Source: Myxococcota bacterium (GTDB lineage Bacteria > Myxococcota_A > SURF-8). From it: DNA of 64,000 bases. Position 1 is the stretch's first letter; each line of letters opens with the position of its first letter. The notes beneath the pieces are model-generated. The model searched no databases. It was given only the letters and a program-made list of their open reading frames with translations, and had not been told where the DNA came from. Location: contig CAXXQS010000001.1 in NCBI GenBank assembly GCA_963674735.2, positions 1,408,001 to 1,472,000 on the forward strand, given 5' to 3'. Shown in pieces: positions 40,018 to 61,119 of this stretch. Made by a program: the position numbers and the translations under genes.

Positions 40018-40133
40018 CACTTCATTTTCACAGCGAAATAGTAGAAGGATCTCTACTCGTTCCCCTACCCCATCTTATTTCACAGGCCCAGAAGCCCTTC
40101 CGAAGAAGGGCTATCCGGGTCGACAAGCGATCG

Positions 40134-41834: not shown

Positions 41835-42191
41835 CGTTTTCTCCTGTGTCAATCCCTTAAGCAAGGTTGTTTAACGGCACCTAATTATGAATACCCTGTC
41901 TCACTACTACATTCAAGCCTTGTAATCTGAGAAATCATAAAGTTGGTTCATCCGTTTTCAGAAAGACCGCATCAACATCTTCGTCAATTCCCGAAATTCA
42001 TGTTTTGAGATACGAATTTATTCAGACCTACAACAACGATAATCCAACGAAGTGCTACCCGCGAAGGCGTTTCATTGGTCTCGAATGGGCGGCTTGTTTG
42101 GTTTTTGCGCTTGGATAGTTTTAGACTCCGGCGGCAAACCCATAATAAATCTACCGCCAAGCACGTCATCGTGTCAAAACTTTCATTGCAA

Positions 42192-43325: not shown

Positions 43326-43357
43326 CTTACCTCCCGGTGCTAGACGCCCGTTTCATG

Positions 43358-45196: not shown

Positions 45197-45374
45197 CTCG
45201 GATAAACCTCCCCTGAAACCGATGTGCAGCCTGGGCACATTCGGCCTATCTATTCAATACCTTAAGCGTTTTCAGGCTAACATTCGTTAGAAGCGGAGTC
45301 AACGCCTTTATGCGATACAACAGGATAGAAATTCGCAATGTTAATTGTGCGCAGTGTTCCGCCGAAGATGACAC

Positions 45375-45434: not shown

Positions 45435-46088
45435 TCAGGCCTTCTTACGACGACCTTTGCCTTTTTTTCCGGAAGCCTTGAACTCACCAACGAGATCCAC
45501 CAACGTAGCGCCTTTAACCTTTTCGTATTCGAGGTCGAAACGCCGTTTAGCGGCATCGCTGCCCACGACTTTGGCTTTGAAATCGGCTTCACTTACGACC
45601 ATGCCTTGGACGGCAAAACCGTAGTTCAGGTTAAGAGCATTTTCGAGGATTTCGCTAAGCTCTTTTTCTTCCGCTTTCTTCAGATTCGCCACCACCACGA
45701 ATTTAGCCGTTTCGCCGGTTCGCGCATGGGAAATCGTCAAAAACGCCGACTTGACCGCAGCCTGCTTGGGTTTCATCGCTTTAACGAAAAGCTGGTTGAT
45801 GTCTTTGTTAAGCGCGCGTTCTTTTTCGAACACAGGCTCTAAAAGATCCCAAATGACTTTATGGTCACGATTGATCGTGTACGAATAAGCGCGACCTACC
45901 GCTTTGCGGAATAGCGCTTTGTTCTTAACCAGACTGTCAAGCGACAACTGGCAAGACCTCGGCGAAATACCGGCGATAGCGGCAATGCGGCGACCTGTCA
46001 TCGCATCGTCGGATTCGTACAAAACACGGAGAATCTCGACTTTGGATGTGGTCCCCAATAAATAATTGAGCATTTTTGTCTGAACCAT
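45435..46088 (-). CDS. Winged-HTH protein with a degenerate nucleotidyltransferase-like domain and basic tail
   Basis: KVEILRVL…TGRRIAAIAGIS…LDSLV…GRAYSYTINRDH wHTH; C-terminal KKGKGRRKKA; GGAGG RBS. Confidence 0.75.
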   Translation of the reverse strand: MVQTKMLNYLLGTTSKVEILRVLYESDDAMTGRRIAAIAGISPRSCQLSLDSLVKNKALFRKAVGRAYSYTINRDHKVIWDLLEPVFEKERALNKDINQLFVKAMKPKQAAVKSAFLTISHARTGETAKFVVVANLKKAEEKELSEILENALNLNYGFAVQGMVVSEADFKAKVVGSDAAKRRFDLEYEKVKGATLVDLVGEFKASGKKGKGRRKKA

Positions 46089-46136
46089 TCTTTCCTCCTG
46101 CCTTTATGTGCCTATTTCCCCACAAAAAAAACACAT

Positions 46137-46178
46137 TGTCTTAAATGTCTTTATAACCGTTTGTCTTGTTATTGTCTA
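46137..46178 (-). promoter_or_regulatory. Sigma70 promoter overlapped by four AGACA direct repeats
   Basis: TAGACA (46178-46173), 17-nt spacer, TATAAA (46155-46150); plus-strand TGTCT at 46137, 46146, 46162 and 46173. Confidence 0.55.
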
Positions 46179-46323
46179 TCTTTTATTAAGGAATAATAAC
46201 ATTTAATCTACATAAAACCTCCTTGATGAGACTCCTGTTTCTATTCCCCCCCTATCGCATTCCATTTCACATGCCTACGATTTTGCTTTCCGTGCCGAAA
46301 TTGTTCCGTCACCTCCGCAAAGT

Positions 46324-49300
46324 TTACTTCCCCTGGATTTTGAACTGAAGAATTATTCCGTCGATACCAGCCGAATAAACATTTTGTCTTCCGAAGCCAG
46401 ACATCGATTTCATACCGAACGTCGGGAATTGTTCCAGAGGTTGCCACAATTCACTGGTTGAGTCGTACAGGTAAAGCTCAAGCAACCCCGCGTTGTCGGC
46501 TAAAAGAAAGAGGAGATCGCCTGCTGCAAACAAGTCGACCGGCACGAGTGTCAGGGGTAAATCGCCGGAGATATCTCGCCAACTTCCCGAATCGTTGGTT
46601 ACAATCTGGACTTCGCCTCCAACAAAACCAGCCGCATAAACGGCCTGTGCATTGATTCCGGTTATCTGCGTAAGTCCTGCACCAGATGGGTCGTACACGA
46701 CATCCATGCTTGTTCCGTTCAGCTTGCTTACGCCGTCCGGCCCAACACCAAATAATTGGTCGACCTGATCCGTCCACAACTCCACCACCGTCTGATCGCT
46801 TGCGCCTGCACCCCAAGTAACCGACGAAAACTGGGAGCCGTCGTAGTGTTTCAAGGTCGGACCCACATAGAAATCGTCGGGAGCGAAACCGGCAACAGCC
46901 GAGGTGAATTCACTAGTCGTAACCGCGGAAGCCGTACCAGCACTATTATCGTAAATCACGACAGCGGATTGATCGGTCGCCATGAAAAGATAGCCGTCGT
47001 TACTTGCCCAAGCATGAACAAAATCCGTCGTGGTCGGGAGTGAGAGGCCGGAAAGGTTTATCGCTACGCTTGACCAATCACCGGTCGCCATTGTTTTTTT
47101 CCACAAAACGCCATCTGAACCTCCAGCGAAAACATGGGTGATATTCAAAGTCGTGATCCAAGCCAGATCATCTTCTATCCCGTTTTGTGCCACCAAGGTC
47201 ATGGCACTGGCATCTCCCATCCATATTTCGCCTAGATTGGAAAGGATAAATACCGGACTCGCTCCACCGCCAAACACATGGTGATAATCCGCCCCGAGAA
47301 TCTGCATGTCAGGAATGGCCGACCAGAGCGACCCATTGAAATGGACTGCGCGGCCCGTCGTTCCATCAATGGAAACACCGACAAGATAGAGGTCGTTGGA
47401 GCCGGTTCCCCATACATCACGAACCGTAAAGGTCGAATCGTAATTGATGGTTTCCCAGCTACCGTCGTAATGAAAGAGGCTCGTACCAAACGGAACATAG
47501 ATTTCATTCGTATCCGCGAAACCGAATACCTTTTCGTAAACCCCGGCGGTCGGTTTGACCAGGCTTGTCCAGTTCGTGCCATTATAACGGTAGACATCCT
47601 TCCCAACCACATACACATTCGAAGCGTCCTTGGCCCAGATATCCTTGGTTTCATCGAAGGTTTCCCCGTCGTTCCCAAGAATCGACCACCCTCCGTCAGT
47701 CAACATGTGCACCGTCATGGTGTTGTTGTTCTTGTCTTCGAGTAAATACAGATTCCCCAGTCCATCGAGATGGATGGCTTTAAAAAGGCTGGAATCCGCA
47801 CTTTTAACAGCCGTCGCCACCTCTCCATCCCAATCGAAGAGCGTATCTTCGGTCAGTAGAAAGATCTGCGTTTCGCTGCGTTTGGCCACATCAATGTAGT
47901 CCGGACCACCCTGGAGAACTTGGATGAATTCATTGTCGTTGGAGTCGAGGTAATACAGCAGAGCCCCATCTTCTCCGCACATCCATACATCATCCGCCGC
48001 AACGGCGTGCGCATTGGTAATGATGTTGCCGGAATGGTAGGGATTTTCCCAACAAAAACAATCGGAATTGCAGACATCATCCACATCGGGCAAGCAGGTG
48101 AACTCGATGGGCTGAGGCGATTCGTCGTCCATCTCGCCGACTTCCGCTTCGTCGTCTAGCTCAGCTTCGACTTCCAACTCGAGATCCCCATCGGTTTCCA
48201 GATCGTCCTCGACGACATCCACTTCCTGATCGCCGTCCACTTCGGTTTCCCAATCCCCATCGATTTCGAGATCGGCTTCCTCATCACCGTCAACTTCCGG
48301 TTCTTCCTCTACATATATCTCGAAGGCGTTCAGTAATACTCCGCCCTCTCCGCCCATGTACAGATTATCGAAGGAAGGACCCGCCAACTCATGCAAACTG
48401 CCATTAAAGCCCGTATCGATACGCTCGAAGTTTTGTTCACTCCTCAGCAGATACAAGCCGCCCTGGTCAGTCACGATGAAGACATGATCTTCGTCCGTTC
48501 CCCACACGCGCGTCGGATTCTCACCCACATTCAAATCGGGAAGACTCACCGATGTAAACTCTTCGCCATCGGAGAACCATACTTTGCCGCCATCGCCGAC
48601 AATCCATATGTAATCGTTGTCCGCTCCCCAAATGTCACGCAACGGAGTTGAGTCGACCGTGTCGAGAACCTTGGCGCGCCAAGTGTCATCTGCACGTCCC
48701 GGCACTTTCTGAGCAACGACGGAGCCGTCACCGACCAACCAGACATTGCTGGCCGATTCGCCCCAGACTCCATGCCAGTTGAACGGGCTGATAATTGTCG
48801 GCGCTCCCGGGTCCAGGCTCCCGTCTACTTCCGAAAGCTCCACATCCCCGTCCGGCAAGCCGGCCCAGGGAACAACCCCATCGGTCAGTTCCGCCCAGTT
48901 CAGTCCATCGAAATGAACAACGCGCCCTCCCACGGCATAGCGATCGTTATCGGCCGCCGCCCAGACTCGTTCGACGACGGTGTTGATCAATGAGTTATCG
49001 GCCTCCAAATAAATCGAGGATTCGCCGGGAGTCCAGCGATAAACCGCATCATTGAAGAATAAAACCGTCCCGTTGGACAAGACCCAGATGTCATTGACAG
49101 GCTGTCGATTGCCATCGAGGCCCAGGTGTCCGATTTCATTCCAGGCCTGTTCGATGACATTATAATATCGGATGTCGCCGATGCTGTCACCGAAGTACAG
49201 AGTGTTCAACTTGCCGCGCATGGCGGTGATATCATGATAAGTGTAGGGACCGTTTTCCCCGTCTTGAGTGCGCGGAGACGGGCGATTGATAATCTCCCAA

Positions 49301-50679
49301 CCCAACCCGGGACCGGTCGCCCAAATGGTTCCACGTAAACCGACCACGTATATTTCTCCCAATGGCGTAACCGCGACATCGGTTAAATCGGTTGTGTCCG
49401 GGGAATCGACTTTTCGCCACATATGATTTTTCAGGAAAGCAGGTGCCGTTTCATCGTCGACATACTGAGGATTGCTGGCGGTAATCAGGTCGTAAACGGT
49501 TCCCTGCGCCCCGACCAGATACAGAAGGTCGCCGTTGCCATCGATTCCGGTTAAGTTCGTGCTGTCCCCATTCGGCAAACCGAAATTCCACCATTGAGTG
49601 CCATCGTGGAACAAAACCGTTCCCGCGTCGCCTACCGCGAACACACGATCCGCTCCAAAGCCGTAGACATCGCGCAGATGATTCGAGGTCAACGCCTGGG
49701 AAGCCGGATCTGAGACGAACGTGTATTGGTTGTCCGAGAAAAGGGTAAATCCTTCATCGCCGACAATGACATACAATTCCTGTGGTATCGACCACATCCC
49801 ACTCAATCCGAGATTGGCTGTCGCCGAATTGAGCTTGGTCCACTGGTTGTTGAAGAAGCGATACAACGTGCCCTGTTCGCCGAGCACGTACGTATTGCCG
49901 ACTCCATCCAAATGGACATGCCGGAAGGTATAGCCGTTAAGTCCGGCCAAGCCGAAATTGAAGGTGGGGATTTTGCTCCAGCCGTTTTCTTCGCCTTGAT
50001 AACGTTGAACGGTGGCGTTTTCTCCGGCCGCCCATACATTGGTGTCATCCGACCCGCCGACTCCCAGCAACTTGGAGAGCGACTGACCGTTCAATCCATC
50101 AAAGATTTCCTTATCGGACGCAATTCGCGTTCCCTTGTCTCCGGCAATCCAGAGAGAGTCGTCCGGGCTATCCCAGATAGAGAACAGATCATGCGCCACC
50201 GGGAAAGGTTGAATCCAACAAACGCCGGTTGCGGTGCAGGTTTCTCCACCATAGCTTTCGGGCCAATCAATGGGGTATTCGATTTCCTGTTCCACTTCCT
50301 CTTCAGCCTCTGCGTTTTCTTCGTCTTCACCCTCGCTCAGATCGTTATCCACATCCCCATCGATTTCGTTCTCTTCTCCTTCTTCGATCTCTCCCTCGGG
50401 GATATCCATATCGCCATCGGTCGGCAATGGAGATTCGTTGCGTTCAATTTCGTAGCCGAACTCCTTGTCACCATCCGGAATTTCGCCGCACTGTTCGGGC
50501 GGTACGCAGGTGCCGTCGCAGCAAACTAGCCCTTCTTGGCAAAGGTCGCCATTGGCGCCGACACAGCCCTGCCCTTCACCGCCGACACCTGAATTCACAC
50601 AGGCCGCAAAAGGAATTAGAACGAAAAGAGCCCCTATCAGAACACCCATTCGAGTGATTATGCTTCTGGTCATCTTCAC
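46324..50679 (-). CDS. Large lipoprotein with two beta-propeller-like repeat regions and acidic DGD linkers
   Basis: Lipobox FAAC; many (V/I)WG….VW.VG..G repeats; each half opens with C…CW..P; Asp/Glu-rich linkers. Confidence 0.82.
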   Translation of the reverse strand: MKMTRSIITRMGVLIGALFVLIPFAACVNSGVGGEGQGCVGANGDLCQEGLVCCDGTCVPPEQCGEIPDGDKEFGYEIERNESPLPTDGDMDIPEGEIEEGEENEIDGDVDNDLSEGEDEENAEAEEEVEQEIEYPIDWPESYGGETCTATGVCWIQPFPVAHDLFSIWDSPDDSLWIAGDKGTRIASDKEIFDGLNGQSLSKLLGVGGSDDTNVWAAGENATVQRYQGEENGWSKIPTFNFGLAGLNGYTFRHVHLDGVGNTYVLGEQGTLYRFFNNQWTKLNSATANLGLSGMWSIPQELYVIVGDEGFTLFSDNQYTFVSDPASQALTSNHLRDVYGFGADRVFAVGDAGTVLFHDGTQWWNFGLPNGDSTNLTGIDGNGDLLYLVGAQGTVYDLITASNPQYVDDETAPAFLKNHMWRKVDSPDTTDLTDVAVTPLGEIYVVGLRGTIWATGPGLGWEIINRPSPRTQDGENGPYTYHDITAMRGKLNTLYFGDSIGDIRYYNVIEQAWNEIGHLGLDGNRQPVNDIWVLSNGTVLFFNDAVYRWTPGESSIYLEADNSLINTVVERVWAAADNDRYAVGGRVVHFDGLNWAELTDGVVPWAGLPDGDVELSEVDGSLDPGAPTIISPFNWHGVWGESASNVWLVGDGSVVAQKVPGRADDTWRAKVLDTVDSTPLRDIWGADNDYIWIVGDGGKVWFSDGEEFTSVSLPDLNVGENPTRVWGTDEDHVFIVTDQGGLYLLRSEQNFERIDTGFNGSLHELAGPSFDNLYMGGEGGVLLNAFEIYVEEEPEVDGDEEADLEIDGDWETEVDGDQEVDVVEDDLETDGDLELEVEAELDDEAEVGEMDDESPQPIEFTCLPDVDDVCNSDCFCWENPYHSGNIITNAHAVAADDVWMCGEDGALLYYLDSNDNEFIQVLQGGPDYIDVAKRSETQIFLLTEDTLFDWDGEVATAVKSADSSLFKAIHLDGLGNLYLLEDKNNNTMTVHMLTDGGWSILGNDGETFDETKDIWAKDASNVYVVGKDVYRYNGTNWTSLVKPTAGVYEKVFGFADTNEIYVPFGTSLFHYDGSWETINYDSTFTVRDVWGTGSNDLYLVGVSIDGTTGRAVHFNGSLWSAIPDMQILGADYHHVFGGGASPVFILSNLGEIWMGDASAMTLVAQNGIEDDLAWITTLNITHVFAGGSDGVLWKKTMATGDWSSVAINLSGLSLPTTTDFVHAWASNDGYLFMATDQSAVVIYDNSAGTASAVTTSEFTSAVAGFAPDDFYVGPTLKHYDGSQFSSVTWGAGASDQTVVELWTDQVDQLFGVGPDGVSKLNGTSMDVVYDPSGAGLTQITGINAQAVYAAGFVGGEVQIVTNDSGSWRDISGDLPLTLVPVDLFAAGDLLFLLADNAGLLELYLYDSTSELWQPLEQFPTFGMKSMSGFGRQNVYSAGIDGIILQFKIQGK

Positions 50680-50721
50680 TTCACGATCCTTTCTTTAATG
50701 AACCGCTTGCGCCCGAAATCG

Positions 50722-51825
50722 TTAAAATCGCGTCTGCGCCTGTACAAAAAATCCGTCGGGAGTAACGGAGATGCCACCTCCGGAACCGAATGTCTCCGGG
50801 CCTTTGTCCTGAATGTCCAAGACAAATAGAACAATCGAACTGACCAGGAAAGCTCCACCCAATCCATACATCACGTTTGAAGTGATCATATAGGTTTCCC
50901 TTTGGTCATCTTTGTCTTTCAAATCTTGAATCGTCAGGGCTTTCTTGGCATCATCGCGCGCTTTATTGGACAACACTCCAAACGTCAGCCCCAACGCGCC
51001 ACTGACAGCCGCAAGACTCAGGGTCGTCCAGGCCCCCACTTTCAAACCTAAATTCCGGGTTTTAGCAGGTGCGGGAGCTTTGTAGATCGCATCGGCATCA
51101 TCCGGCGTTGAAATGGGTACCACCATCCCGATGGGACGATCGGTGATCAATCCGGCATTGACCAACATTCGTCGATATCCCTGCTGGCCCAGATTGGGGA
51201 GTTTGCTTGAGTCATACTCGGTTTGTAGTGATTCGGCCATAACCCTTGAGCGTCTTAGATCCACCAAACGAATGAAAAGGGAGTATTCGGCCTGTTGCCG
51301 TGGAAGTGGAGAATCGGTGTTCATGCCAGCCTGCATCTCAGGCTTCGGTCCGATTGCGGTCATGCGCAACTTGGATACAACAACCAAGTCGAGATCGCTC
51401 GCTTTCAAGGCCTTCGCCAGACACGAAGCATCGATCCAGCACTTGTTGTACATGGATTTCTCAGCTGGTCCCAGGTACTTCATGACGTTATTGTGTGGAA
51501 TTACGGTACGTTGGGCTGCGTTTATCTCTTCGGATGTCATTTGAAGATATTCGAAGATCCGGCCTCTCGTGAGATCCGAAACGGCATTCTCCGCTTCAAA
51601 TGTCGATCGGACTTCCATAACACCAATGCGGAGATTGCGCGCATTCGCATTTTGAACAGAGACCCCGCTATCATCTGAATAGCCATCATCGGAAGTTGAG
51701 GAATAAGGGTCATCATTACCAACAAGAACGTCATCATCATCGGAAACTGCCTGCGCCTCAGCCGAAATCACGATCATCCCGAACATCACAAGCAAGGCAA
51801 TCGAACCGAGCTTCACTGCGTTCAT
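50722..51825 (-). CDS. Exported protein with an alpha/beta domain, hydrophobic helical hairpin and C-terminal beta-hairpin ending in Phe
   Basis: Signal peptide; C….C in CWIDASC; IRLVDL strand; two Gly/Ala-rich hydrophobic helices; …VTPDGFFVQAQTRF. Confidence 0.65.
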   Translation of the reverse strand: MNAVKLGSIALLVMFGMIVISAEAQAVSDDDDVLVGNDDPYSSTSDDGYSDDSGVSVQNANARNLRIGVMEVRSTFEAENAVSDLTRGRIFEYLQMTSEEINAAQRTVIPHNNVMKYLGPAEKSMYNKCWIDASCLAKALKASDLDLVVVSKLRMTAIGPKPEMQAGMNTDSPLPRQQAEYSLFIRLVDLRRSRVMAESLQTEYDSSKLPNLGQQGYRRMLVNAGLITDRPIGMVVPISTPDDADAIYKAPAPAKTRNLGLKVGAWTTLSLAAVSGALGLTFGVLSNKARDDAKKALTIQDLKDKDDQRETYMITSNVMYGLGGAFLVSSIVLFVLDIQDKGPETFGSGGGISVTPDGFFVQAQTRF

Positions 51826-52170
51826 CCCGAACATCCTTTCTTTGTGGACGTTTCGATCAATATGCAACTATTGTCTGCAACCGTATTGCGTTCATATAAG
51901 TTGCGGGATTTTATCATGGTTCAATCATTCTAGCAAGAAGGGCAACGTATCCCGGCTACTTTACTCTCCGCTTTCAGTCAATCCTCATTGTCGAATCCTA
52001 TTTTCATAGAAAATACCCCATTTTAGCGATTGTCAGGAGTGAACCGACCGCCTTCGTAAAAGCTTAGCTGTCCGCTCCATTTCGCTCTCAATTCTATCTG
52101 AAGTCCATAAACTGGTAATGAATCAGATTTTTCGCAGGCTTCCCGCCCCACCATTGCGCCGGAGACATGT

Positions 52171-55100
52171 ATGCGGTATGCTCGCATCAACGTAGAGAAA
52201 GGATGTTCGGTGCCAGCCAAGCCAACTGACAGTATTGTTTCCATATTCCGCTGTGCACCGTTGACCGATGCCTTCGGGGGCGCACTCGATCTGGAAAGTC
52301 TGCGTGGCAGTCTGCGCTCTTCTGGCCTGCGTGTCGCCCATCTCATTGCCCATGATACGTTTTGGGAACTGCGACACACGGAAACCGACGAACGCATTGT
52401 TGCGCTTGCCCTGACTTGTTTGCGAGAACATCTTAGCCCGTTGGTACCCATTGAGACAACTCGGGATAACAGTCTTGATGACATCGAAATAACGGATGCT
52501 CGTCACAAACCGCCGGTGCCGGTCGTACTGTCCGAATTCGGTGTGGCCGACGTCACCGAAACGCTCACTGCACTCTCTAATCGATTGTTCGTTCACCCGG
52601 CCGCAGTTCCGACGTCCATTCATCAAGCGAAAACAGACTCTTACGCCGCACCACCCACCATATGCCACATTCTCGATCAGCTGGCAAATCCCTTCGGTGC
52701 CTATGGTTTGACACCCGACACGTGGCGGGTGCGCTGGTTGGAACGCGGTTCCCTCTGGCGTGAAGCTCTTCCTATTCCTAATGTCCCGAAGTTACAGATC
52801 CTACTCTGGCAGACAGCCGAAACGGCTCAAGCGGTCTTCGTTGCCATTATCGCCGAGGACGATCCGGTGAAGGCGGACGCGGCCGCCCGATCGCTCACAG
52901 CCTTGCTGATCGAGCAACCCGAAGCTCCAGCCGCCCCCGAGTTGTGGTTGGACGGCTTGCCCTACGGCGTTGCCCGGCGTCCAATCGTCGCCGCTCCCGT
53001 CGATTACACCACCCCTCTACCGATCCTCCGCATCGAAAATCGCTGCAGTTCATGCGGACGTTGTGCCGAGGTTTGCCCGGTTCGCGTGCTTACACCGGAG
53101 GGCCTGCCCACACCCGACATGCAAACGACCTGCTTGCGCTGTTACGACTGCGTGGAAGCCTGTCCGGAAGACGCTCTGCGTCCGACACTTTCGGACGACA
53201 CCGCGACGATTGGACACACATTAAGCTATCGTTCCGGCTGGCTATCGAGGATCGTCGGTCGGCCCGGACCTGCTTTTCCAGCACCTCATATTCCCTCATA
53301 CCTCCTCCCTACATCGGACAAGGCTTGCGAAACACCGCGGGTGATCGTCGGGCTTTCGATGACCACGATGCAGGAACACGCCACCGCTTTGCTGATCGAC
53401 GGAGTCCTCGTCGGGGCGATCGAGGAAGAACGCCTGAACCGCGTGCGCCATTACGGCTGGTCACCCGCCGGTCGCTCAGGTGTGACCCTCGCCATGGATC
53501 CGACCCTTTGTTTGGAGGAGGCGCTACCCCGGCGGGGAATCCGAGCGCTTTTAGAGCATGCCGGGCTGACGCTCGACGACGTGGATTTGTTCGCCATCAA
53601 CGGACTTCCCGCCCGCTATCGGCATGCCTACTCTCTCCATAACAGCGAACGTCCGGTGCCGGTGCTGCGCTCGGGACGCGTGGCCTTTATCCCGCATCAC
53701 TTGGCTCATGCCGCCAGCAGCTATCGACTAAGTGGTCTTTCCGATGCCTGGGTGTTGACGGTGGATGGCCGGGGAGACCGGGAAACGGCGGCGTTGTTCA
53801 AAGCCGAAAACGGACATCTTGAACCTCGCAATGAAATCCTTTCACTCACCGATCATTCCATCGGCGGCGTTTACGAAACCGTGACGCGTCTGCTCGGCTT
53901 CGGCTCCCACGGACAAGGCAGTACGATGGCCCTGGCCGGATTCGGTCAAGGCGATGTCGACCTAGACAACTGGTTATCCATCCGTAACTGGTCTTCCTAC
54001 CGTATCCACGAAAACGGACTGGAGGCTGCTTTCGATGGCGTAGCGATAAACGAAACGGAAGATGTTTCGCCCGAAGGCCGTTACAATCTCGCGGCGTCGT
54101 TGCAGGATGCCCTTGAAAAGGGTGTGCTATCGCTGTTGCGAGCAGGTGGCGTTCCCGAAAAAGGAGCGGCGCTGTGCCTGGCGGGTGGAGTGGCACTCAA
54201 CTGCCAGATGAACGAACGCATTCGGCACGAATTGAAGCCCGCCTCACTGTTTATCCAACCGGGGGCCAACGATGCAGGAACCGCGCTCGGGGCCGCGCTG
54301 GAAGCCCAGGCTCTATTTTCGCTTCCGTTAAAGGATCAGCCACTATCCCATGCACTTCTGGGGCCGGCCTTTACCGACGACGAAATCGAGGCGGCCCTGA
54401 TTCAACACGGCGTACCCTATCGACCAGTAGACGACATCAGCGAAACCGCTGCGCAGCTTCTGGCCGCAGGCAAAATCGTCGCCTGGTTCCAGGATCGCCT
54501 GGAATTCGGTCCGCGCGCCTTGGGTTCACGCAGCCTGCTGGCCGATCCGCGCAATCTTTCCGTGAAAGACCGCCTGAACGCGCTCAAGCAGCGGCAATCC
54601 TGGCGCCCCTTCGGGCCATCCGTTTTAGCGGGTCACGAACGCGACTGGTTCGAGAATGCCTGCGACAGCCGCTTCATGTTGCTTACACAAACCGTCCATG
54701 CTGAAAAACGGGAGTTGATTCCTGCAGTTTTGCACGTAGATGGCACCACCCGGCCCAATCTCGTCCGCTCGGATCTTCAGCCACGCTACCATGCATTGAT
54801 TGCGGCTTTTCATCGGCTGACCGGCGTTCCTCTGGTGCTCAATACTTCGTTCAATCGGCACGGCGAACCGATCGTCTGTACCCCCGATGACGCCCTAATT
54901 TGCTATCTCGCACTCGGGGCCGACGCCTTGGCCATCGGCTCGTTCATCGTCGAAGCGTCTGCCGCTCCCCTTCGCGCCCCGCGCCTGCCCACACTCAGTC
55001 GTCTGCAAGCCTGCCCCGGCGGGCGACGCTTATCGTTACGTTTGACTATCCACTGCGAGTGCCGATGCGTCCATTGTACTTTGGGCGATATGCCGGTTTG

Positions 55101-55914
55101 TCCCGACCGTTCCTTCAATGAAGCCCTGCGAGCCCTGGCCGAGGGACGTCGTCACTCTTGCGACGAACTGGTGATCCTGCGCGGTGAAGCAACCCATTGG
55201 CCTAAATTGGCTGAATTGATCGCACGCGCCAAAGAGATGGGCTATCGCTTTGTTCAATTGCAAAGCAACGGCGCGGCTCTGGCTGCCACCGATGTGCGTA
55301 AGCCGCTTCTGGCTGCGGGTTTGGACGCTGTAGAGGTCACCTTGGTTGCAGCCTCGGAAAACGATACAGCGCAAATCATGGGAGAAGGACGCTTCTTCAA
55401 AGACACGCTTCTCGCCATCCGCGCCCTGGTACAGGCCGGTCGTTTCGTGCTGGTTTCCGTGCCGCTCCTGCGCGACAACGTCCACGCCTACCCCAAACTG
55501 ATTGCGTTAATCGCTCGCTTGGGTGTCACGCACCTGCAATTCAACTTCCCTCGGCCGGTGGAGACTCCCGCCGGACTTTCGACGAAGTCCCTGATGCGCT
55601 TGAGCGATGCCGCCGCCGCACTGGCAGCCGTTTTACCCCAGACTCGCGAACTGGGTTTGACCGTCAGCACGGAAGGGCTACCTTTTTGCCATCTCGATCG
55701 CACGCTTTGGTCTATTCCCGATGCACAGGAAGACTGGTCACGCCATCGTGTCGACGATCTGCATCTCACACACGACAGTCTGACAACCGTTCGTCAGGCG
55801 GCGCGTCCGGATGCTCTGCCTTGCCGCGTCTGCGCCGAACGAACGCATTGTCCGAAAACCTGGGCACTTTATTTGGAATTGTTCGGTTCGAATGAATTTC
55901 GACCATTCGACTAG
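52171..55914 (+). CDS. Fusion of an unknown N-terminal domain, 2x[4Fe-4S] ferredoxin, NodU/CmcH-family O-carbamoyltransferase and HxsC-like radical SAM domain
   Basis: CSSCGRCAEVCP and CLRCYDCVEACP; EEERLNR, HHLAHA, DGRG, GGVALN, EFGPRALG, RPFGP and LNTSFN; CECRCVHC, QSNG, EGLPFC and CRVC…C. Confidence 0.85.
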   Translation: MRYARINVEKGCSVPAKPTDSIVSIFRCAPLTDAFGGALDLESLRGSLRSSGLRVAHLIAHDTFWELRHTETDERIVALALTCLREHLSPLVPIETTRDNSLDDIEITDARHKPPVPVVLSEFGVADVTETLTALSNRLFVHPAAVPTSIHQAKTDSYAAPPTICHILDQLANPFGAYGLTPDTWRVRWLERGSLWREALPIPNVPKLQILLWQTAETAQAVFVAIIAEDDPVKADAAARSLTALLIEQPEAPAAPELWLDGLPYGVARRPIVAAPVDYTTPLPILRIENRCSSCGRCAEVCPVRVLTPEGLPTPDMQTTCLRCYDCVEACPEDALRPTLSDDTATIGHTLSYRSGWLSRIVGRPGPAFPAPHIPSYLLPTSDKACETPRVIVGLSMTTMQEHATALLIDGVLVGAIEEERLNRVRHYGWSPAGRSGVTLAMDPTLCLEEALPRRGIRALLEHAGLTLDDVDLFAINGLPARYRHAYSLHNSERPVPVLRSGRVAFIPHHLAHAASSYRLSGLSDAWVLTVDGRGDRETAALFKAENGHLEPRNEILSLTDHSIGGVYETVTRLLGFGSHGQGSTMALAGFGQGDVDLDNWLSIRNWSSYRIHENGLEAAFDGVAINETEDVSPEGRYNLAASLQDALEKGVLSLLRAGGVPEKGAALCLAGGVALNCQMNERIRHELKPASLFIQPGANDAGTALGAALEAQALFSLPLKDQPLSHALLGPAFTDDEIEAALIQHGVPYRPVDDISETAAQLLAAGKIVAWFQDRLEFGPRALGSRSLLADPRNLSVKDRLNALKQRQSWRPFGPSVLAGHERDWFENACDSRFMLLTQTVHAEKRELIPAVLHVDGTTRPNLVRSDLQPRYHALIAAFHRLTGVPLVLNTSFNRHGEPIVCTPDDALICYLALGADALAIGSFIVEASAAPLRAPRLPTLSRLQACPGGRRLSLRLTIHCECRCVHCTLGDMPVCPDRSFNEALRALAEGRRHSCDELVILRGEATHWPKLAELIARAKEMGYRFVQLQSNGAALAATDVRKPLLAAGLDAVEVTLVAASENDTAQIMGEGRFFKDTLLAIRALVQAGRFVLVSVPLLRDNVHAYPKLIALIARLGVTHLQFNFPRPVETPAGLSTKSLMRLSDAAAALAAVLPQTRELGLTVSTEGLPFCHLDRTLWSIPDAQEDWSRHRVDDLHLTHDSLTTVRQAARPDALPCRVCAERTHCPKTWALYLELFGSNEFRPFD

Positions 55915-55918
55915 CAGC

Positions 55919-56833
55919 CTAATCCAAACTTGCCACCCACTCTCCCAAATAGGAAAAATCGGGTCGCCAGGCCGGATCGCTTTCGGCTATCCGTGCAAGC
56001 GCGTGTCGCACATTCGTTGCCGTGTCGGGTCGTTCGTCTGGTCGTTGCGCTAACAGCGACGTCACCAACCTCGACAGTTGCTGCGGGATATCGCCAAAAA
56101 CATCGGCAGGTGTGTCAGGAGGATCATTGAGGATGGCTGTCATCGTTTCGGTAGGGGTTTCACGGCGATGAAGTTGTACGCCCAGCAGGAGTTCCCAAGC
56201 CAAAATTCCCAAAGCGTATAAATCCGAACGCGCGTCGGGCAGGGTCGTTTCAGTATTGTTCCCATCCATACCAGCTCGCTCCGGGCTCAGGTAGGAAAAG
56301 CTGCCGCAGCCAATGACATCTCGGGAAGAACGCGGGCCTCCGCGCCATACGGCGAGTCCGAAGTCGGTGAGCTTGACGGTTCCATTGAACCCAAGCAATA
56401 CATTTTGCGGCGACACATCATGATGGACCACTTCCACAGGACCGTTTTCATCCCGTAGAAGATGAATGGACTCCAACACATCCGCCAAAGCTTGCAGGAT
56501 CGCCATAACCGCCCGAGAAGGCCAGCGCCGTCCATCCATCTGGGCGCGTCGCCCCGCTTCGGCCAAGGTAAGTCCTTGTACATATTCCAGTATCGCCATG
56601 GGTCGCGAAGAGGTATCGTCCAATGAAATGAGTTTCACGAGATGCGGATGGTCGAATCGTGCTTGAAGGCGCAGAGAATCGACGAAGTAACGTCGCTCAC
56701 GTGCAATATCGGACAAGTGAGAGTGGCAGACCTTCAATACACGTTCGTGACGATCTTCATCGTGGACCAACCATATTTCGGAACTGGCCGTGCAGGCGAG
56801 GCGTTCGATGGGCGTGTAAGGCCTTGTTTTCAT
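55919..56833 (-). CDS. Ser/Thr kinase-like protein, non-RD, lacking the Gly-rich loop
   Basis: VLK, HHDVSPQN, DFG, YLSPE and DLYALG motifs; the P-loop position reads ACTASSEI. Confidence 0.82.
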   Translation of the reverse strand: MKTRPYTPIERLACTASSEIWLVHDEDRHERVLKVCHSHLSDIARERRYFVDSLRLQARFDHPHLVKLISLDDTSSRPMAILEYVQGLTLAEAGRRAQMDGRRWPSRAVMAILQALADVLESIHLLRDENGPVEVVHHDVSPQNVLLGFNGTVKLTDFGLAVWRGGPRSSRDVIGCGSFSYLSPERAGMDGNNTETTLPDARSDLYALGILAWELLLGVQLHRRETPTETMTAILNDPPDTPADVFGDIPQQLSRLVTSLLAQRPDERPDTATNVRHALARIAESDPAWRPDFSYLGEWVASLD

Positions 56834-56845
56834 GAAGTCTAAACC

Positions 56846-56873
56846 AAAATCGGGGAGGTTGGTTCCTCCCCGA
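56846..56873 (-). terminator. Intrinsic terminator after the mlaC-like gene
   Basis: Minus strand TCGGGGAGG-AACCAA-CCTCCCCGA-TTTT. Confidence 0.75.
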
Positions 56874-56883
56874 CGGTGTGAGT

Positions 56884-57555
56884 CTATTTCCCGGCTTTCG
56901 GTTTGGCGGCCGGTTCATCATCGAAGCGGTCGTTTTCGATTTTGCCCGAGGATGGCAAGTCCAGCTCGTTGAGCTTACGTTTCATCTTCTCCAGCATTTT
57001 ATCGAAGCCGTCTTTGCGAATGATCTTGTTGAACTGGGAGCGGTAGTTTTCCATCAGGCTGACATCGTCGATCAGCATGTCGAACACCACCCATTTACCG
57101 GCTTTCTCGATGAAACGAAGCTGGATGCGTCCGAGGTACTTGCCCGATTTCACTTTGAAACGCACCGTCTGGAAATCTTCACCCGGAAGTTCTTCGTACC
57201 ACTTGATTTTATAGGTCGTCGAATCGGAAATGCGCAGAAGGTAGTTTTTCTCGATCAACGACTTCAAAGTCGCGAGAAAATCGGTCCGTTGAGCTGCACT
57301 GATGTCGTCCCAATGAAACACGAGGGAACGCATGCCAAGCTCTTCGAAGTCAAAAAGAGCATTGATGGTCTCGCTAAGCTTATCTTCTTTGGCCTGATGC
57401 GCCGGAGTTCCTTTCACGGTTTTCAGAGCTAATACCTTGCGAACCTCAAGCTCCTTTTTAACCGCGAGATCGGTCGCCGGCCCGGCAAACGCCGGAAGAC
57501 TCAAAACCAGCATTCCAATCAGCGAAAACATAATCAGCACGAATGAACGTCGCAT
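56884..57555 (-). CDS. MlaC/Ttg2D-family periplasmic lipid-binding protein
   Basis: Signal peptide; FDFEELG…LVFHW; WVVFDMLIDDVSLMENYRSQF. Confidence 0.88.
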   Translation of the reverse strand: MRRSFVLIMFSLIGMLVLSLPAFAGPATDLAVKKELEVRKVLALKTVKGTPAHQAKEDKLSETINALFDFEELGMRSLVFHWDDISAAQRTDFLATLKSLIEKNYLLRISDSTTYKIKWYEELPGEDFQTVRFKVKSGKYLGRIQLRFIEKAGKWVVFDMLIDDVSLMENYRSQFNKIIRKDGFDKMLEKMKRKLNELDLPSSGKIENDRFDDEPAAKPKAGK

Positions 57556-57617
57556 GTTATCTCCTCAAAGCAGTCCGTACAGACAGGAAACACCACCCGA
57601 TTGCGGAGATGTCACCT

Positions 57618-59159
57618 TCAGTCGTTCGAGCTATTCAGATCCTTGGAATCATTAGCCATTAACCATTCCAGTTTAGCCTGAGCCAAAAACACGGCGTGCA
57701 TGGAAGCATGGTACTGGAATTGGGTTTTGATGTAAGCGGCGATACCCTCAACCAAGTCCGAGGAACTGGCGAAGCCCGCATTGTAATTCATCCATTCCGA
57801 TACCATCCACTTGCGGCCCGAGCCTTCGCTTTTCTTGCTTATTTCCATCTGTTTCAGTTTTTCATGGTAGGCTTGATAGCCCTCTTCCAATTCGATGGTC
57901 ATCATCGATTGATAGTGCTTGCGCTCTTGTTCACTCTTGTTGAATTTGGCTTCGGCCTGGCGCGAACGATGGATTTGCAGGGGCAGATCGAAGGTATATT
58001 GCAAACCGACAAAGCCGGTGAGGTAGTTCTCATTATAAGGATCGTTCAAGAAAGGATTTTCCACGTCATCGATGGAGGGCGTATAGACAAACCTGTATTT
58101 CATCGATACGAAAAAATCCGGGAAATAATAAGCGAATTGACGTTTGGATTCCAACCGGTTACGCTCGACCTTCAAGTTCAGCAAGCGAATCTCCGGACGC
58201 TGCGTCAACATTTGATTTTGAACGTCGGAACGATCCAGCAAGCTTTCTTTTCGCTCGGGGCGTTGCAGATAGCGATGATCCAGGTAAAGCGGAGCGTCGG
58301 GGGATAGCGCTAAAACTTCATGCAGCGTCCTCATCAACACTTTCCGGTTCCGTTCGGTTTCGGCAAAACGCGAGGCAAGATCGGCCTTAACCACTTCAAA
58401 TTTATAGCGATCGATCATCGAGACCGTATCCGCCCCGGTTTCCAACAACTCTTCCAGCTTATCTTCCGCCTTGTTCAGATAATCCTGTGCTTCTTCCAGG
58501 ACTTTCAACGTGCGTTCGATTAATTGAAGAGAGTAATAAATTCGTTTGACTTCATAAGTTAAACGGCATTCGGCCTGCTTGCGCCCATAGCGGCCTGCCT
58601 GCTCAGCTAACGGCCCCTGTTTGCGTAAGTTGTTGATTTTACCAAATGTATAAAGTGGGATATTGACTTCGAGGTCATTGCCCCAAACGACTCCACCCAC
58701 ACTCCACTGTTCGGGATCGTAAGAGATGAAGGCATCGGGATCTTGAGTGGAAGGAGGGTTGTAATCTGGTGCGAGTGTGATCGCACTGCGAAGCCTGATT
58801 TGCGGGAACCAAGCCCACCACGCCTCTCCGGCCAGTTCGTGTGTGTAAGCCAATTCCCAATTGGCGGCTTTGATTCCCGGATTATTGGACAGTCCCAGTT
58901 CGATCAAACGTTCCAGGCTATAGATATTTTCAGGTGGGATGTTATCCAGGCGACCATTTCCCTCCCAATCGTCATCTGCGAAGGAATCGTCGTCTCCCCA
59001 ATCATCGTTAGCCCAGTCCTCAGCGGAAACCTCGGTAGCGGGTTCACCCGATCGTGGCGCTTCGTCCTTCTTCTGCTGTACATCCTGTGCCCCTAGATTG
59101 CTACTGAAGGTGAGGAACAGAAAACAAACCGGTAGGACGAACCAATGACACTTTCTCAT
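57618..59159 (-). CDS. TolC-family outer-membrane channel
   Basis: SLERLIELGLSNNP, WFP, IPLYTFGKI, QRPEI and YFPDF motifs; helical repeats. Confidence 0.85.
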   Translation of the reverse strand: MRKCHWFVLPVCFLFLTFSSNLGAQDVQQKKDEAPRSGEPATEVSAEDWANDDWGDDDSFADDDWEGNGRLDNIPPENIYSLERLIELGLSNNPGIKAANWELAYTHELAGEAWWAWFPQIRLRSAITLAPDYNPPSTQDPDAFISYDPEQWSVGGVVWGNDLEVNIPLYTFGKINNLRKQGPLAEQAGRYGRKQAECRLTYEVKRIYYSLQLIERTLKVLEEAQDYLNKAEDKLEELLETGADTVSMIDRYKFEVVKADLASRFAETERNRKVLMRTLHEVLALSPDAPLYLDHRYLQRPERKESLLDRSDVQNQMLTQRPEIRLLNLKVERNRLESKRQFAYYFPDFFVSMKYRFVYTPSIDDVENPFLNDPYNENYLTGFVGLQYTFDLPLQIHRSRQAEAKFNKSEQERKHYQSMMTIELEEGYQAYHEKLKQMEISKKSEGSGRKWMVSEWMNYNAGFASSSDLVEGIAAYIKTQFQYHASMHAVFLAQAKLEWLMANDSKDLNSSND

Positions 59160-59269
59160 TCGTTTACTCAAGTTGCACTCCGCTTTTAGGCCCTCTCCGT
59201 ATCGAACGGGCTCAATAAAGCATATCACTGATCGAAAGTCACGAAAAAAGCGTCGGCGGCAAGCTCAAT

Positions 59270-59343
59270 AGTGACCAATGAGTCATTATTTGCTTGACAT
59301 AATTTCTCGGATCGCTATGGTCGATAGTGACAGCATCGTCACT
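59270..59343. promoter_or_regulatory. Two TetR-type operator palindromes flanking a sigma70 promoter
   Basis: AGTGAC-N6-GTCATT (59270-59287) and AGTGAC-N6-GTCACT (59326-59343); TTGACA at 59294 and TATGGT at 59316 between them. Confidence 0.75.
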
Positions 59344-59378
59344 TGGTTGTTTCTATACCATACACAGAAGTAGTCTAT

Positions 59379-60023
59379 ATGACCAAACATAGAAGCCGCG
59401 AAGACCGAATACAAGAAATCCTCGATGCGACCTCGGATGTGATCGACGAACATGGCCTGCCTGCCCTTACCATGGACGCCATTGCCGCTCACTGTAGTTT
59501 AAGTAAAGGCGGTGTCTACCGGTTTTTCCCTAATAAGCATGCTGTGTGCTTGGCTTTGTTCGATCAAATCTACAGCTTTATCGCCGAAATCAATGTCGAG
59601 GAATGTCTGTCGTGGAATCTACCCATTACGGAAACACTATCTCGCCTGATTTTTCGCGATGATTTCAGTCACGCACAGGTCACTCGCCATTATCGGCTCT
59701 GGCTTCTGTTACTTTCACAATCTCTGTTGAATGAGGATTTCCGAAAAACCAAACAAAAATACATGCTCCAGATCGAGGTGGATGCAGCACACCTCATCAG
59801 CGCCGTTTTGGCCCGTGATGGTCTGGAGTTGTCGGACCAGACAAAAAATGAACTGACAATGGCGATTCAAGTGGCCAATACCATGCTCGAAGGCATGGTG
59901 ATAGAAGCACTGTGCGGAACCCCGCGCGAAGACCTTCAGCAGCGTATCCGCTGGTGGTTGGAACGCATTCTTCGCGATGCCGTTCAAAAATTTCCTTCTG
60001 TTAATAATGACCCGAGTCTGTAG
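59379..60023 (+). CDS. TetR/AcrR-family transcriptional regulator
   Basis: ILDA…VIDEHG…LTMDAIAAHCSLSKGGVYRFFPNK HTH. Confidence 0.92.
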   Translation: MTKHRSREDRIQEILDATSDVIDEHGLPALTMDAIAAHCSLSKGGVYRFFPNKHAVCLALFDQIYSFIAEINVEECLSWNLPITETLSRLIFRDDFSHAQVTRHYRLWLLLLSQSLLNEDFRKTKQKYMLQIEVDAAHLISAVLARDGLELSDQTKNELTMAIQVANTMLEGMVIEALCGTPREDLQQRIRWWLERILRDAVQKFPSVNNDPSL

Positions 60024-60030
60024 TACGAGG

Positions 60031-61119
60031 ATGACAATGACAAAAAGTGTGACCTGGAACTTCCCGGCGAACGTCCTTCGATCCGGCTTTCTTTCCGCAA
60101 CCCTCCCTCTCTTGTTCGCGGTCATCACGAGTGGCTTGCTGTGCTCAGCCTGCAACACGGACAATCAGATTGAAGAGACACCCCCGATTCTCGTCGAAGT
60201 TCAAGTGGCGAGCATTTCCGAAAATCCGTTGACGCGCCGATTTTCCGGCTACACACATCCATGGGATGTTCACGGCGTCGGTTTCCTGGTTTCCGGGCGC
60301 GTTTCGAAATTGCTTGTCAAAGAGGGCGAATTCGTAAAAAAAGGCGATCTGATCGCGACAATGGACCCGGAAGACTACAAACTGGTCGAACAATTGGCGC
60401 AAACACAGGTGGAAGCCCTCGAACCGAACTTCAAACGTGTCGATTCACTCGTTAAAAACGACGCCCTACCGCAGAGCAAGTTGGACGAGATCAAGGGTCG
60501 CTACGACGCGGCGCGAACCCAGCAAAAACGCGCCGAGCGCCAGATGAAATACACGCGTTTGTATGCCCCCATTTCCGGAGTAGTACACGAATTGCGAACA
60601 GCGGCCGGACAGGTTATCGCCAGCGGCAGCCCGGCGGTTATTTTGCTGGATATCGATCGCTTGAAGTTAAAAATCGGCGTTCCTCAGAAGGATTTGAAAT
60701 ACTTCACGATCGGGGATGAACTTGAAGTGGACGTCCCGGGAGTGAAAAGCGGTATCGCGGGCAAGGTTTGTCATATCGATTACGTGGCCGACGCGACGAC
60801 GCGCAGTTTTTCGATCGATGTCGAAATTCAGAACGGCGACCACCAGTTACGCCCCAGCATGTTGGCGAATACGCATATCACCATCGACCGCTACAAGGGG
60901 TACTTCGTTCCGATCCATGCCGTTATGCACACACTTGAAGGCAGCCCATATTTGATGCTCGTCGATGAAGCCACGCAAACGATCACCGATGCGGCCGTCA
61001 AGATCGGAATCCGTTTCGGCGAACAACTCCAGGTTACGGAAGGACTCAAAGGCGGAGAGAAAATCGTCGTACGCGGCAACAATTTCGCGCGTGAAGGGGA
61101 CAAGGTGGTTGTCCGATGA
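60031..61119 (+). CDS. RND efflux membrane fusion protein
   Basis: VSGRVSKLLVKEGEFVKKGDLIA, LYAPISGVV, LRPSM and GLKGGEKIVVRG motifs; possible lipobox CSAC. Confidence 0.92.
   Translation: MTMTKSVTWNFPANVLRSGFLSATLPLLFAVITSGLLCSACNTDNQIEETPPILVEVQVASISENPLTRRFSGYTHPWDVHGVGFLVSGRVSKLLVKEGEFVKKGDLIATMDPEDYKLVEQLAQTQVEALEPNFKRVDSLVKNDALPQSKLDEIKGRYDAARTQQKRAERQMKYTRLYAPISGVVHELRTAAGQVIASGSPAVILLDIDRLKLKIGVPQKDLKYFTIGDELEVDVPGVKSGIAGKVCHIDYVADATTRSFSIDVEIQNGDHQLRPSMLANTHITIDRYKGYFVPIHAVMHTLEGSPYLMLVDEATQTITDAAVKIGIRFGEQLQVTEGLKGGEKIVVRGNNFAREGDKVVVR

Follow-up and report, generated by a model that had tools for sequence, protein, structure and literature searches.

A conserved family of ferredoxin, carbamoyltransferase and radical SAM fusion proteins in which the general base of O-carbamoylation is replaced

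The fusion gene and its homologues

In a 64,000-nucleotide stretch of the genome of a Myxococcota bacterium (the window; GenBank assembly GCA_963674735.2, contig CAXXQS010000001.1, positions 1,408,001 to 1,472,000), a single open reading frame (ORF) encodes an N-terminal domain, a ferredoxin, a carbamoyltransferase (CT) and a radical S-adenosylmethionine (rSAM) domain in one chain (Table 1). An initial annotation of the sequence had described this one-ORF design with a complete two-domain CT, and Pfam bears out the inventory. Fer4 families match residues 286-337 (PF00037, PF13187 and PF13237 above their cut-offs), Carbam_trans_N (PF02543) scores 116.4 bits (cut-off 24), Carbam_trans_C (PF16861) scores 211.5 bits over residues 761-928 (cut-off 27, E-value 7.9e-63) and Radical_SAM (PF04055) scores 43 bits over residues 959-1103 (cut-off 29.5). 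Residues 1 to about 285 have no Pfam match. The motifs named in the annotation lie where it placed them, from the first ferredoxin cysteine (C292, nucleotide 53044) and the CxxxCxxC motif to the QEH and RGE triplets and the four cysteines of the C-terminal tail.

Table 1. Extent, domains and motifs of the fusion ORF (positions in the window)
Feature	Position	Strand	Basis
Whole ORF, 1247 amino acids plus stop codon	52171..55914	+	Single uninterrupted reading frame
N-terminal domain, about residues 30-270, two alpha/beta subdomains	52258..52980	+	AlphaFold2 model; no Pfam family
2x[4Fe-4S] ferredoxin domain, residues 286-337	53026..53181	+	Pfam Fer4 families
Pro-rich linker, residues 338-385, consensus RPGWLSRL..PGP..PAPFPPSYLLPK	53182..53325	+	Alignment conservation
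Kae1-like (ASKHA) half of the CT	53335..54300	+	Pfam Carbam_trans_N; GdmN 7vyj alignment
Q401-E402-H403, replacing the canonical His-Asp-Ser	53371..53379	+	GdmN alignment
YrdC-like half of the CT, residues 761-928, putative carbamoyl-AMP-forming module	54451..54954	+	Pfam Carbam_trans_C
rSAM domain, residues 951-1247, with C-terminal candidate auxiliary Cys site	55021..55911	+	PF04055; AlphaFold2; Foldseek
CxxxCxxC (CECRCVHC), residues 962-969, predicted ligands of the SAM-cleaving cluster	55054..55077	+	Sequence motif
R1004-G1005-E1006, at the usual place of the GGE SAM-binding motif	55180..55188	+	Alignment
C1173, C1218, C1221 and C1227, candidate auxiliary-cluster ligands	55687..55851	+	Invariant in alignments

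Seventy-six proteins reached E ≤ 0.001 in a word-indexed protein search, and 64 of these (P0002-P0065, 1111-1492 amino acids) align with 79-99% query coverage and 45-55% identity. They come from Myxococcales, Polyangiales and Elusimicrobia metagenome-assembled genomes (MAGs), and their source names say only 'radical SAM protein', '4Fe-4S binding protein' or 'carbamoyltransferase'. A scan of genome contigs with the single sequence as query found no relative, whereas an alignment-based pattern scan over one genome per GTDB species yielded 72 related loci (identified below by L numbers). The family is spread over three phylum-level groups, Myxococcota, Elusimicrobiota and Bradymonadia, and cultured carriers include two strains of Enhygromyxa salina as well as Plesiocystis pacifica SIR-1. 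The Plesiocystis locus (L021) has two rSAM genes ahead of the family gene, and the Enhygromyxa salina member is of the ferredoxin-CT form. A profile of the N-terminal domain and ferredoxin, searched against 1.84 billion representative proteins, found 22 matches at E ≤ 1e-30, some of them polyferredoxins and about ten of them long proteins aligned over the whole profile. By these searches the family is real but rare.

The gene is also found on contigs of three public sequencing runs, all from one study. One 48.6-kb contig covers positions 51900-56100 without differences and is possibly the source assembly itself. In a run of a second sample, short contigs are identical over both domain junctions (53021-53347 and 54772-55176). 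No indel is listed for the contigs that match the fusion gene in the runs of the two samples, and no RNA run is among those listed as carrying it.

A quick maximum-likelihood tree was built from 71 CT domains and rooted on four ordinary CTs, omitting loci with less than 70% CT coverage (L052, L064 and L069, among others). The window protein falls within a 36-row clade that shares its N-domain, ferredoxin, CT and rSAM architecture (support 97 by the SH-like approximate likelihood ratio test, SH-aLRT), with a Myxococcota MAG (L022) as its sister (support 87). The Elusimicrobia rows are nested inside this clade. The same genome encodes a second family member (C2:961549-963450, 1149 amino acids; C1 and C2 denote contigs of this genome) that has no rSAM domain and belongs to a separate ferredoxin-CT clade with Enhygromyxa, Nannocystaceae and Bradymonadia (support 99). 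Its ferredoxin and CT follow an N-terminal part of about 500 residues (region C2:961549-964968; L098:11519-14968, minus strand). A NACHT-domain gene lies beside it, and a possible rSAM-like ORF of about 300 residues lies about 2.5 kb away on an ambiguous strand.

Relatives show other designs, with 500-900 N-terminal residues that match no Pfam family and with or without the ferredoxin and the rSAM domain. In split forms, an rSAM gene of about 300 codons directly follows the CT gene, and its product is 34-39% identical to the C-terminal domain of the window protein. One CT protein has an rSAM domain at both ends (L033:9938-14719, 1593 amino acids). At another locus (L056:11617-18005), a DUF362-ferredoxin-rSAM-rSAM protein of 1195 amino acids and an rSAM-BFD[2Fe-2S]-GNAT-rSAM protein of 934 amino acids are encoded beside the CT.

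The literature yielded no paper on a CT-rSAM-ferredoxin fusion, in a coverage that mostly excludes subscription journals. TobZ/NodU-class CTs and rSAM enzymes are both well studied; the family that combines them is rare and uncharacterised. The view that no characterised protein has this combination stands. The architecture is not unique and belongs to a small conserved family.

Conserved and replaced residues of the domains

Residues 391-943 align to the solved chains of GdmN, TobZ and NovN with E-values of about 1e-73 (1.8e-73 for GdmN, 7vyj). In the alignment, H133, H134 and H137 of GdmN correspond to H509, H510 and H513, and D156-G157-R158 corresponds to D532-G533-R534; with D701, these are the metal and oxyanion residues of the Kae1-like half. 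The module resembles TobZ, GdmN, NovN and NodU/CmcH in that both halves score far above the Pfam cut-offs and in its HxxxH/Asp metal ligands and D-G-R oxyanion segment. It differs from them in its fusion to an N-terminal domain, ferredoxin and rSAM domain and in the general-base position, where H27 of GdmN pairs with Q401 and a histidine follows two residues later. The NodU equivalog model NF041651 (NCBIfam) gives 132.7 bits, far under its cut-off of 1000. In the available part of the GdmN study (PMC9633730), H27 is described as the general base, which removes the hydroxyl proton of the acceptor, and the H27N substitution abolishes activity.

We compared 71 CT domains taken from the related loci and from this genome, with 66 readable ingroup rows and four outgroup CTs. 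Variation at the metal and oxyanion residues is rare among the 71 rows: a few differ at R534 and one outgroup sequence differs at H510. The base position is never histidine in the ingroup (0 of 66), where the motif reads QEH in 35 rows, MEH in nine, QNH in seven, QHH in four, ANH and QEN in three each, AEH and LHH in two each and EHH in one. A histidine at +2 from the base position is found in 63 of the 66 rows. Two of the four outgroup CTs read HDS, including this genome's third CT (C1:2300062). Among the closest 32 homologues QEH is invariant, as are many residues of the YrdC-like half.

Since histidine is absent from the base position in all 66 ingroup rows, QEH in place of HD is, by alignment, a hallmark of the family. 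This agrees with the suggestion of the initial annotation that one module may be non-canonical. Adenylate handling looks intact, and the activation of the acceptor would have to differ from the known O-carbamoyl mechanism. Because the general-base histidine is a glutamine here, with a histidine two residues on, the acceptor is probably not a base-activated hydroxyl like that used by TobZ or GdmN.

The C-terminal domain is predicted with confidence as an rSAM fold (AlphaFold2 model of residues 930-1247, mean predicted local distance difference test score, pLDDT, 94.8). Foldseek found 316 matches in the PDB at E ≤ 1e-3, and the best 38 are all rSAM-type enzymes. The top match is BlsE (7vob, E-value 1.7e-12, template modelling score 0.63), and further matches include SuiB, SkfB, viperin, DesII, GDGT-MAS, PqqE, NifB and MoaA. 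By sequence, the best PDB match of the domain is PqqE (E-value 6.4e-5). The domain is similar to Twitch/SPASM rSAM enzymes (BlsE, SuiB, SkfB, PqqE) in having a partial TIM-barrel core followed by a Cys-rich C-terminal extension; unlike them, it has RGE, only four tail cysteines and no match to Pfam SPASM at E ≤ 0.1.

The label 'HxsC-like' given to this domain does not hold as a family assignment. The best NCBIfam models are HxsC4 (NF038332, 38 bits against a cut-off of 500) and HxsC (TIGR03977, 28.7 bits against 267.9), and because both scores are far under the cut-offs these are the nearest names and not a membership. The NirJ, AhbD, TrsS, PqqE and MoaA models score about equally. HxsC and HxsC4 are also the best named models for the rSAM genes that flank relatives, with at most 147.8 bits against 500. 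No HxsA-like repeat peptide, HxsB or HxsD was found among the ORFs in the roughly 8 kb that flank the fusion gene on each side.

In a comparison of 111 C-terminal domains of the family, in which protein and locus entries are partly redundant, CxxxCxxC is kept in 79, including this copy. Domains with the motif always have C962 and C969, and C966 is conserved in at least 90% of them. The domains that lack the motif include an Elusimicrobia clade reading DDCDPAHAP, some with CxCx5C and some with no cysteine there at all. The tail cysteines, with a spacing of C-x44-C-x2-C-x5-C, are invariant throughout, even in homologues without CxxxCxxC. Of the RGE triplet, G1005 never varies in the 32-homologue alignment, and R1004 and E1006 show conservation of 90% or more; motif-bearing members share the whole triplet without exception. 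Shorter, standalone relatives of the domain gave 11 matches, none informatively named. Eight have only rSAM and/or CT C-terminal Pfam domains, as expected of fusion fragments; of the other three, two are short with no Pfam domain and one is a distant standalone rSAM protein (30% identical).

The ferredoxin has two CxxCxxCxxxCP motifs (C292/295/298/302-P303 and C321/324/327/331-P332), and all eight cysteines are invariant both in an alignment of 32 sequences and in one of 22. The linker residues W357, L358, R360, G363, P370, P375 and P380 are invariant as well. The in-chain, 'self-reducing' electron supply proposed for the protein is plausible. A complex prediction for the ferredoxin (residues 276-345) with the rSAM domain gave no verdict (score 0.00).

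Residues 1-385 were modelled by AlphaFold2 with a pLDDT of 82.7 and a predicted template modelling score of 0.82, showing two predicted alpha/beta subdomains ahead of the ferredoxin. A protein atlas gave no usable match for the N-terminal domain, and in a Foldseek search of the PDB only the ferredoxin part had matches at E ≤ 1e-3. VIA-align of residues 29-113 returned generic ferredoxin-like folds, the best being the PaaK C-terminal domain (Z 6.8), followed by acylphosphatase (Z 5.0) and the HypF N-domain (3vth, Z 4.7, root-mean-square deviation 3.2, 79 aligned residues); as residues 140-270 were barely probed, we make no claim of a novel fold. A profile of the domain matched the DUF362-ferredoxin-rSAM protein of L056 (probability 97.8, E-value 9e-13), with most aligned columns in the ferredoxin, so that a relation to DUF362 is a lead only. 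The same profile did not match the window's own DUF362 protein. By sequence comparison, the N-terminal domain is specific to the fusion family.

Gene context in this genome and at related loci

The fusion gene is flanked by a divergent gene for a 381-residue signal-peptide protein, across a gap of 303 bp, and by a convergent Ser/Thr kinase gene 4 bp away. The upstream region gave only a chance-level Rfam match (E-value 0.27) and no credible small ORF. Among the ORFs within about 8 kb on either side there is no rSAM, peptide-repeat or Hxs-type Pfam match; this genome's other rSAM copies lie outside the window. Farther out are a 1451-residue ORF without a Pfam match, a MutL-type protein (PF13941) and MlaC, OEP, TetR and RND efflux genes.

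Some neighbours deserve separate mention. The 1451-residue ORF is one of three consecutive ORFs on the minus strand (217, 1451 and 381 residues, 45435-51867) with no Pfam family at E ≤ 1e-3, and the 381-residue product has a signal-peptide-like N-terminus and a hydrophobic C-terminal stretch. The stretch from 38719 to 45238, 7-13 kb upstream of the fusion, holds a DUF362 protein gene (38719-40017, plus strand), an acyl-CoA-dehydrogenase-like ORF (40134-41864, minus strand), a 377-residue ORF without a Pfam match and the MutL gene (glutamate-mutase-accessory type, 405 bits). On the other side (55919-63998), MlaC-like and OEP genes come after the kinase, along with a TetR-HlyD-AcrB efflux operon that extends beyond the window.

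Fifteen window ORFs were queried against the 72 related loci and gave only generic kinase or PAS-type similarities. At this locus, the fusion gene is an orphan. Related loci show a recurring context that the initial annotation had not foreseen, consisting of rSAM arrays and nitrogenase-like genes. In counts taken from crude ORF calls, with some loci mis-called and related genomes not independent, at least one further rSAM gene lies in the fetched flanks of 38 of the 72 loci, at least two at 21, and NifH- or NifDK-like genes at 10. For example, the Pfam matches at L011 include a fused NifH-NifD-like gene, two further Oxidored_nitro genes and seven rSAM genes, one of them B12-binding. In line with the initial annotation, which had seen no precursor peptide near the fusion, no small ORF recurs beside the homologues; the one recurring ORF of about 100 residues (three loci) encodes a helix-turn-helix (HTH) protein. 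It should also be noted that the flanks of L024, L025, L026 and L028 contain Aas-like acyltransferase and AMP-binding fusions and SDR genes near an rSAM-less ferredoxin-CT gene, a recurrence that possibly indicates a lipid link.

The genome (5.26 Mb, three contigs, 94% complete) contains 20 rSAM domain matches to the C-terminal domain of the window protein. NifH-like genes lie at C2:235833 and C1:1580439, and three loci carry NifDK-like genes. The fusion (about C1:1460171-1463914) is more than 100 kb from the nearest of these nitrogenase-like loci. The NifH-like proteins (NflH) of the genome are 45-49% identical to the NflH encoded beside the fusion in L010, L011, L025 and L063. An rSAM gene at about 1.2546 Mb on C2 encodes a protein 48, 47 and 42% identical to the rSAM protein encoded just upstream of the fusion in L021, L010 and L011, respectively; it lies between a UDP-N-acetylglucosamine (UDP-GlcNAc) 2-epimerase gene and genes for a PMT_2 glycosyltransferase and a Wzx-like flippase. 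Because these relatives of fusion-flanking genes lie at distant loci, sequence identity suggests that likely partners are probably present but dispersed.

Two of the nitrogenase-like loci (C1:1576983-1581227, C2:235833-240017 and C2:757946-760338; L099, L100 and L103) have a NifH-like and two NifDK-like genes and one has DK-like genes only. The loci are flanked by genes for PAS histidine kinases, an FNR-like reductase and an amine-oxidase-like flavoprotein, not by rSAM genes. At C1:1873596-1877409 (L101), a 2519-residue ORF adjoins a tandem run of four rSAM domain matches that span three or four genes.

Co-occurrence was counted in a sample of 401 genomes of the phylum, with a family CT called at 500 bits or more (the next best match had 367 bits). 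PF00148 was found in 11 of the 19 genomes with a family CT and in 67 of the 382 others. Since related genomes are not independent, these matches indicate a tendency, not a rule.

Proposed role, alternatives and significance

All domains are present, the nucleotide, metal and oxyanion residues of the CT are conserved in the alignments, and in this copy the rSAM fold, as modelled, and its cluster cysteines are intact. We consider it somewhat better than an even bet (roughly 0.55) that the protein is a carbamoyl-AMP-forming tailoring enzyme with a non-canonical acceptor, coupled to a radical step in a small-molecule or cofactor pathway. The YrdC-like half would convert carbamoyl phosphate and ATP to carbamoyl-AMP, and the Kae1-like half would transfer the carbamoyl group to an acceptor, for which an amine, a thiol or a differently placed hydroxyl are candidates. 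The rSAM domain would then cleave SAM and carry out a radical step on the same substrate, using the putative auxiliary four-Cys site, with the in-chain 2x[4Fe-4S] ferredoxin as the likely entry point for electrons. Judging from relatives, further pathway genes may include arrays of paralogous rSAM genes and sometimes Group VI nitrogenase-like genes, with the partners of the orphan fusion at distant loci in this genome. By analogy, StdF offers a precedent for a non-hydroxyl acceptor in the CT class: in the available part of a preprint (PMC13174530), this NodU-like CT, which has a further domain fused to it, transfers the carbamoyl group to the epsilon-amine of a Lys in a ribosomally synthesised and post-translationally modified peptide (RiPP). 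StdF is likened to the window protein by that description, as a NodU-class CT with a second catalytic domain. Its partner domain is an S8/S53 peptidase, which the window protein does not share, and its RiPP cluster has a precursor peptide of a kind not seen here.

Several observations weigh against this proposal. The window neighbours have no counterpart at the 72 loci, even in the same taxonomic family, and the pathway assignment therefore rests on relatives, whose neighbour counts carry the limits given above. Adjacency to nitrogenase-like genes is confined to Elusimicrobiota (nine loci) and one Bradymonadales, and no Myxococcota locus has such a gene within 10 kb; PF00148 was not found in eight of the 19 family-bearing genomes, which are 84-96% complete. 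The ferredoxin is retained in relatives without a fused rSAM domain, and its partner may therefore not be that domain. RGE replaces GGE family-wide, as the initial annotation had read it in this copy, and SAM binding is a prediction here. CxxxCxxC is lost in 32 of the 111 C-terminal domains, and Plesiocystis pacifica, the only cultured carrier of the full fusion seen, also lacks this stretch. Because the SAM-cluster cysteines are missing from about a third of the family, radical chemistry is, by sequence, not obligatory for the family, of which this copy keeps the motif; in part of the family the radical step may be dispensable or delegated.

These losses lend themselves to a different reading, in which the rSAM domain does not cleave SAM and serves as a structural, electron-relay or substrate-binding module of a redox-linked CT. 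The four tail cysteines and much of the domain are invariant even where CxxxCxxC is missing, RGE is found throughout and the Pfam rSAM score is modest. We nevertheless regard this as quite unlikely for the window protein, since this copy and 78 others keep the canonical motif, with its cysteines conserved as described above, and the model is a confident rSAM barrel. A peptide maturase acting on a RiPP or protein, with the CT carbamoylating a Lys amine or Cys thiol and the rSAM domain cross-linking or modifying the product, is rather unlikely. In its favour, the loss of the general-base histidine would suit an amine or thiol acceptor, StdF offers a precedent, the nearest named rSAM families, although weak matches, are the peptide-associated HxsC4 and HxsC, and the RiPP maturases SuiB and SkfB are among the structural neighbours. 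However, the 303-bp upstream gap holds no plausible precursor, the downstream gene is convergent at 4 bp, the recurring small ORF at homologue loci is an HTH protein, the HxsC scores are far under their cut-offs and Pfam detected no RiPP-recognition domain in the fusion protein.

Tailoring of a glycan or sugar nucleotide, by carbamoylation and radical modification of a sugar in a cell-surface polysaccharide or glycolipid, also seems unlikely. Sugars and polyketide hydroxyls are the usual targets of the characterised CTs of this class, with TobZ and NovN among the matches in the PDB. The sugar-modifying enzymes BlsE, at rank 1, and DesII belong to the best structural matches of the rSAM domain, and this genome's orthologue of a fusion-flanking rSAM gene lies among the epimerase, PMT_2 and Wzx-like genes. 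Yet the histidine that deprotonates a hydroxyl is absent family-wide, glycan genes do not recur beside the fusion at the 72 loci, and the glycan context is a single locus without the fusion itself. That assembly, binning or a frameshift joined separate genes can practically be dismissed: adjacent CT and rSAM genes do exist as split forms in other genomes, but 64 independent near-full-length homologues, the 36 tree rows with the fused design and identical, indel-free contigs over both junctions from runs of two samples exclude an artefact as far as the data reach.

A more specific proposal, which we hold to be doubtful and which rests on analogy, is that the family supplies the carbamoyl donor of a cofactor pathway shared with Group VI nitrogenase-like proteins and rSAM arrays, with a non-oxygen acceptor as in HypF. 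In HypF, YrdC-like and Kae1-like chemistry proceeds through carbamoyl-AMP, and the acceptor is the HypE thiol. The acceptor here might be the thiol or amine of a carrier, or else an intermediate bound to a cluster or a tetrapyrrole, and the rSAM domain and ferredoxin might convert the carbamoyl group in-chain, for example to a C1 or CN-type ligand, a ureido bridge or a ring. A non-oxygen acceptor would explain why the hydroxyl-activating histidine is replaced in every member. The window protein resembles HypF of [NiFe]-hydrogenase maturation in its extra N-terminal domains, and the acylphosphatase domain of HypF is among the weak fold matches, although Z 4.7 for 3vth is within the range of generic ferredoxin-like folds. 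Unlike HypF, it has no Zn-finger motifs and no HypE context, and the HypF model TIGR00143 finds nothing over its cut-off anywhere in this genome.

Some relatives, such as that at L011, are embedded in gene clusters like the Group VI NflHDK clusters of groundwater Elusimicrobia (Meheust et al. 2020); at L011, about ten rSAM genes accompany the NifH-like and NifDK-like ones. The available part of that paper also reports Group VI paralogues from Myxococcales and suggests that they help to make a tetrapyrrole-type cofactor; the available text of a 2026 review still lists the function as unknown, and 'carbamoyl' is absent from the available text of both. The window gene differs from these clusters in its distance from the nearest nitrogenase-like locus (C1:1576983-1581227), and this genome's NflH proteins are likened to those of Group VI by sequence identity.

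With the gene alone in the window, this locus adds distribution and sequence evidence for the family, not pathway evidence. Our analysis contributes an orphan copy from Myxococcota, the observation that the general base is replaced across the family, a tree and genome-level co-occurrence figures. Because cultured Plesiocystis pacifica SIR-1 and Enhygromyxa salina carry family members, genetics and metabolomics are feasible. For the product of Group VI clusters, in question since 2020, a carbamoyl mark (+43.006 Da) would be a concrete search target; if the link to a cofactor pathway were true, this would be the first carbamoyl-dependent radical enzyme and the first chemical handle on Group VI systems. 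More generally, the residue that defines the known O-carbamoylation mechanism is replaced in every family member aligned, which points to new acceptor chemistry.

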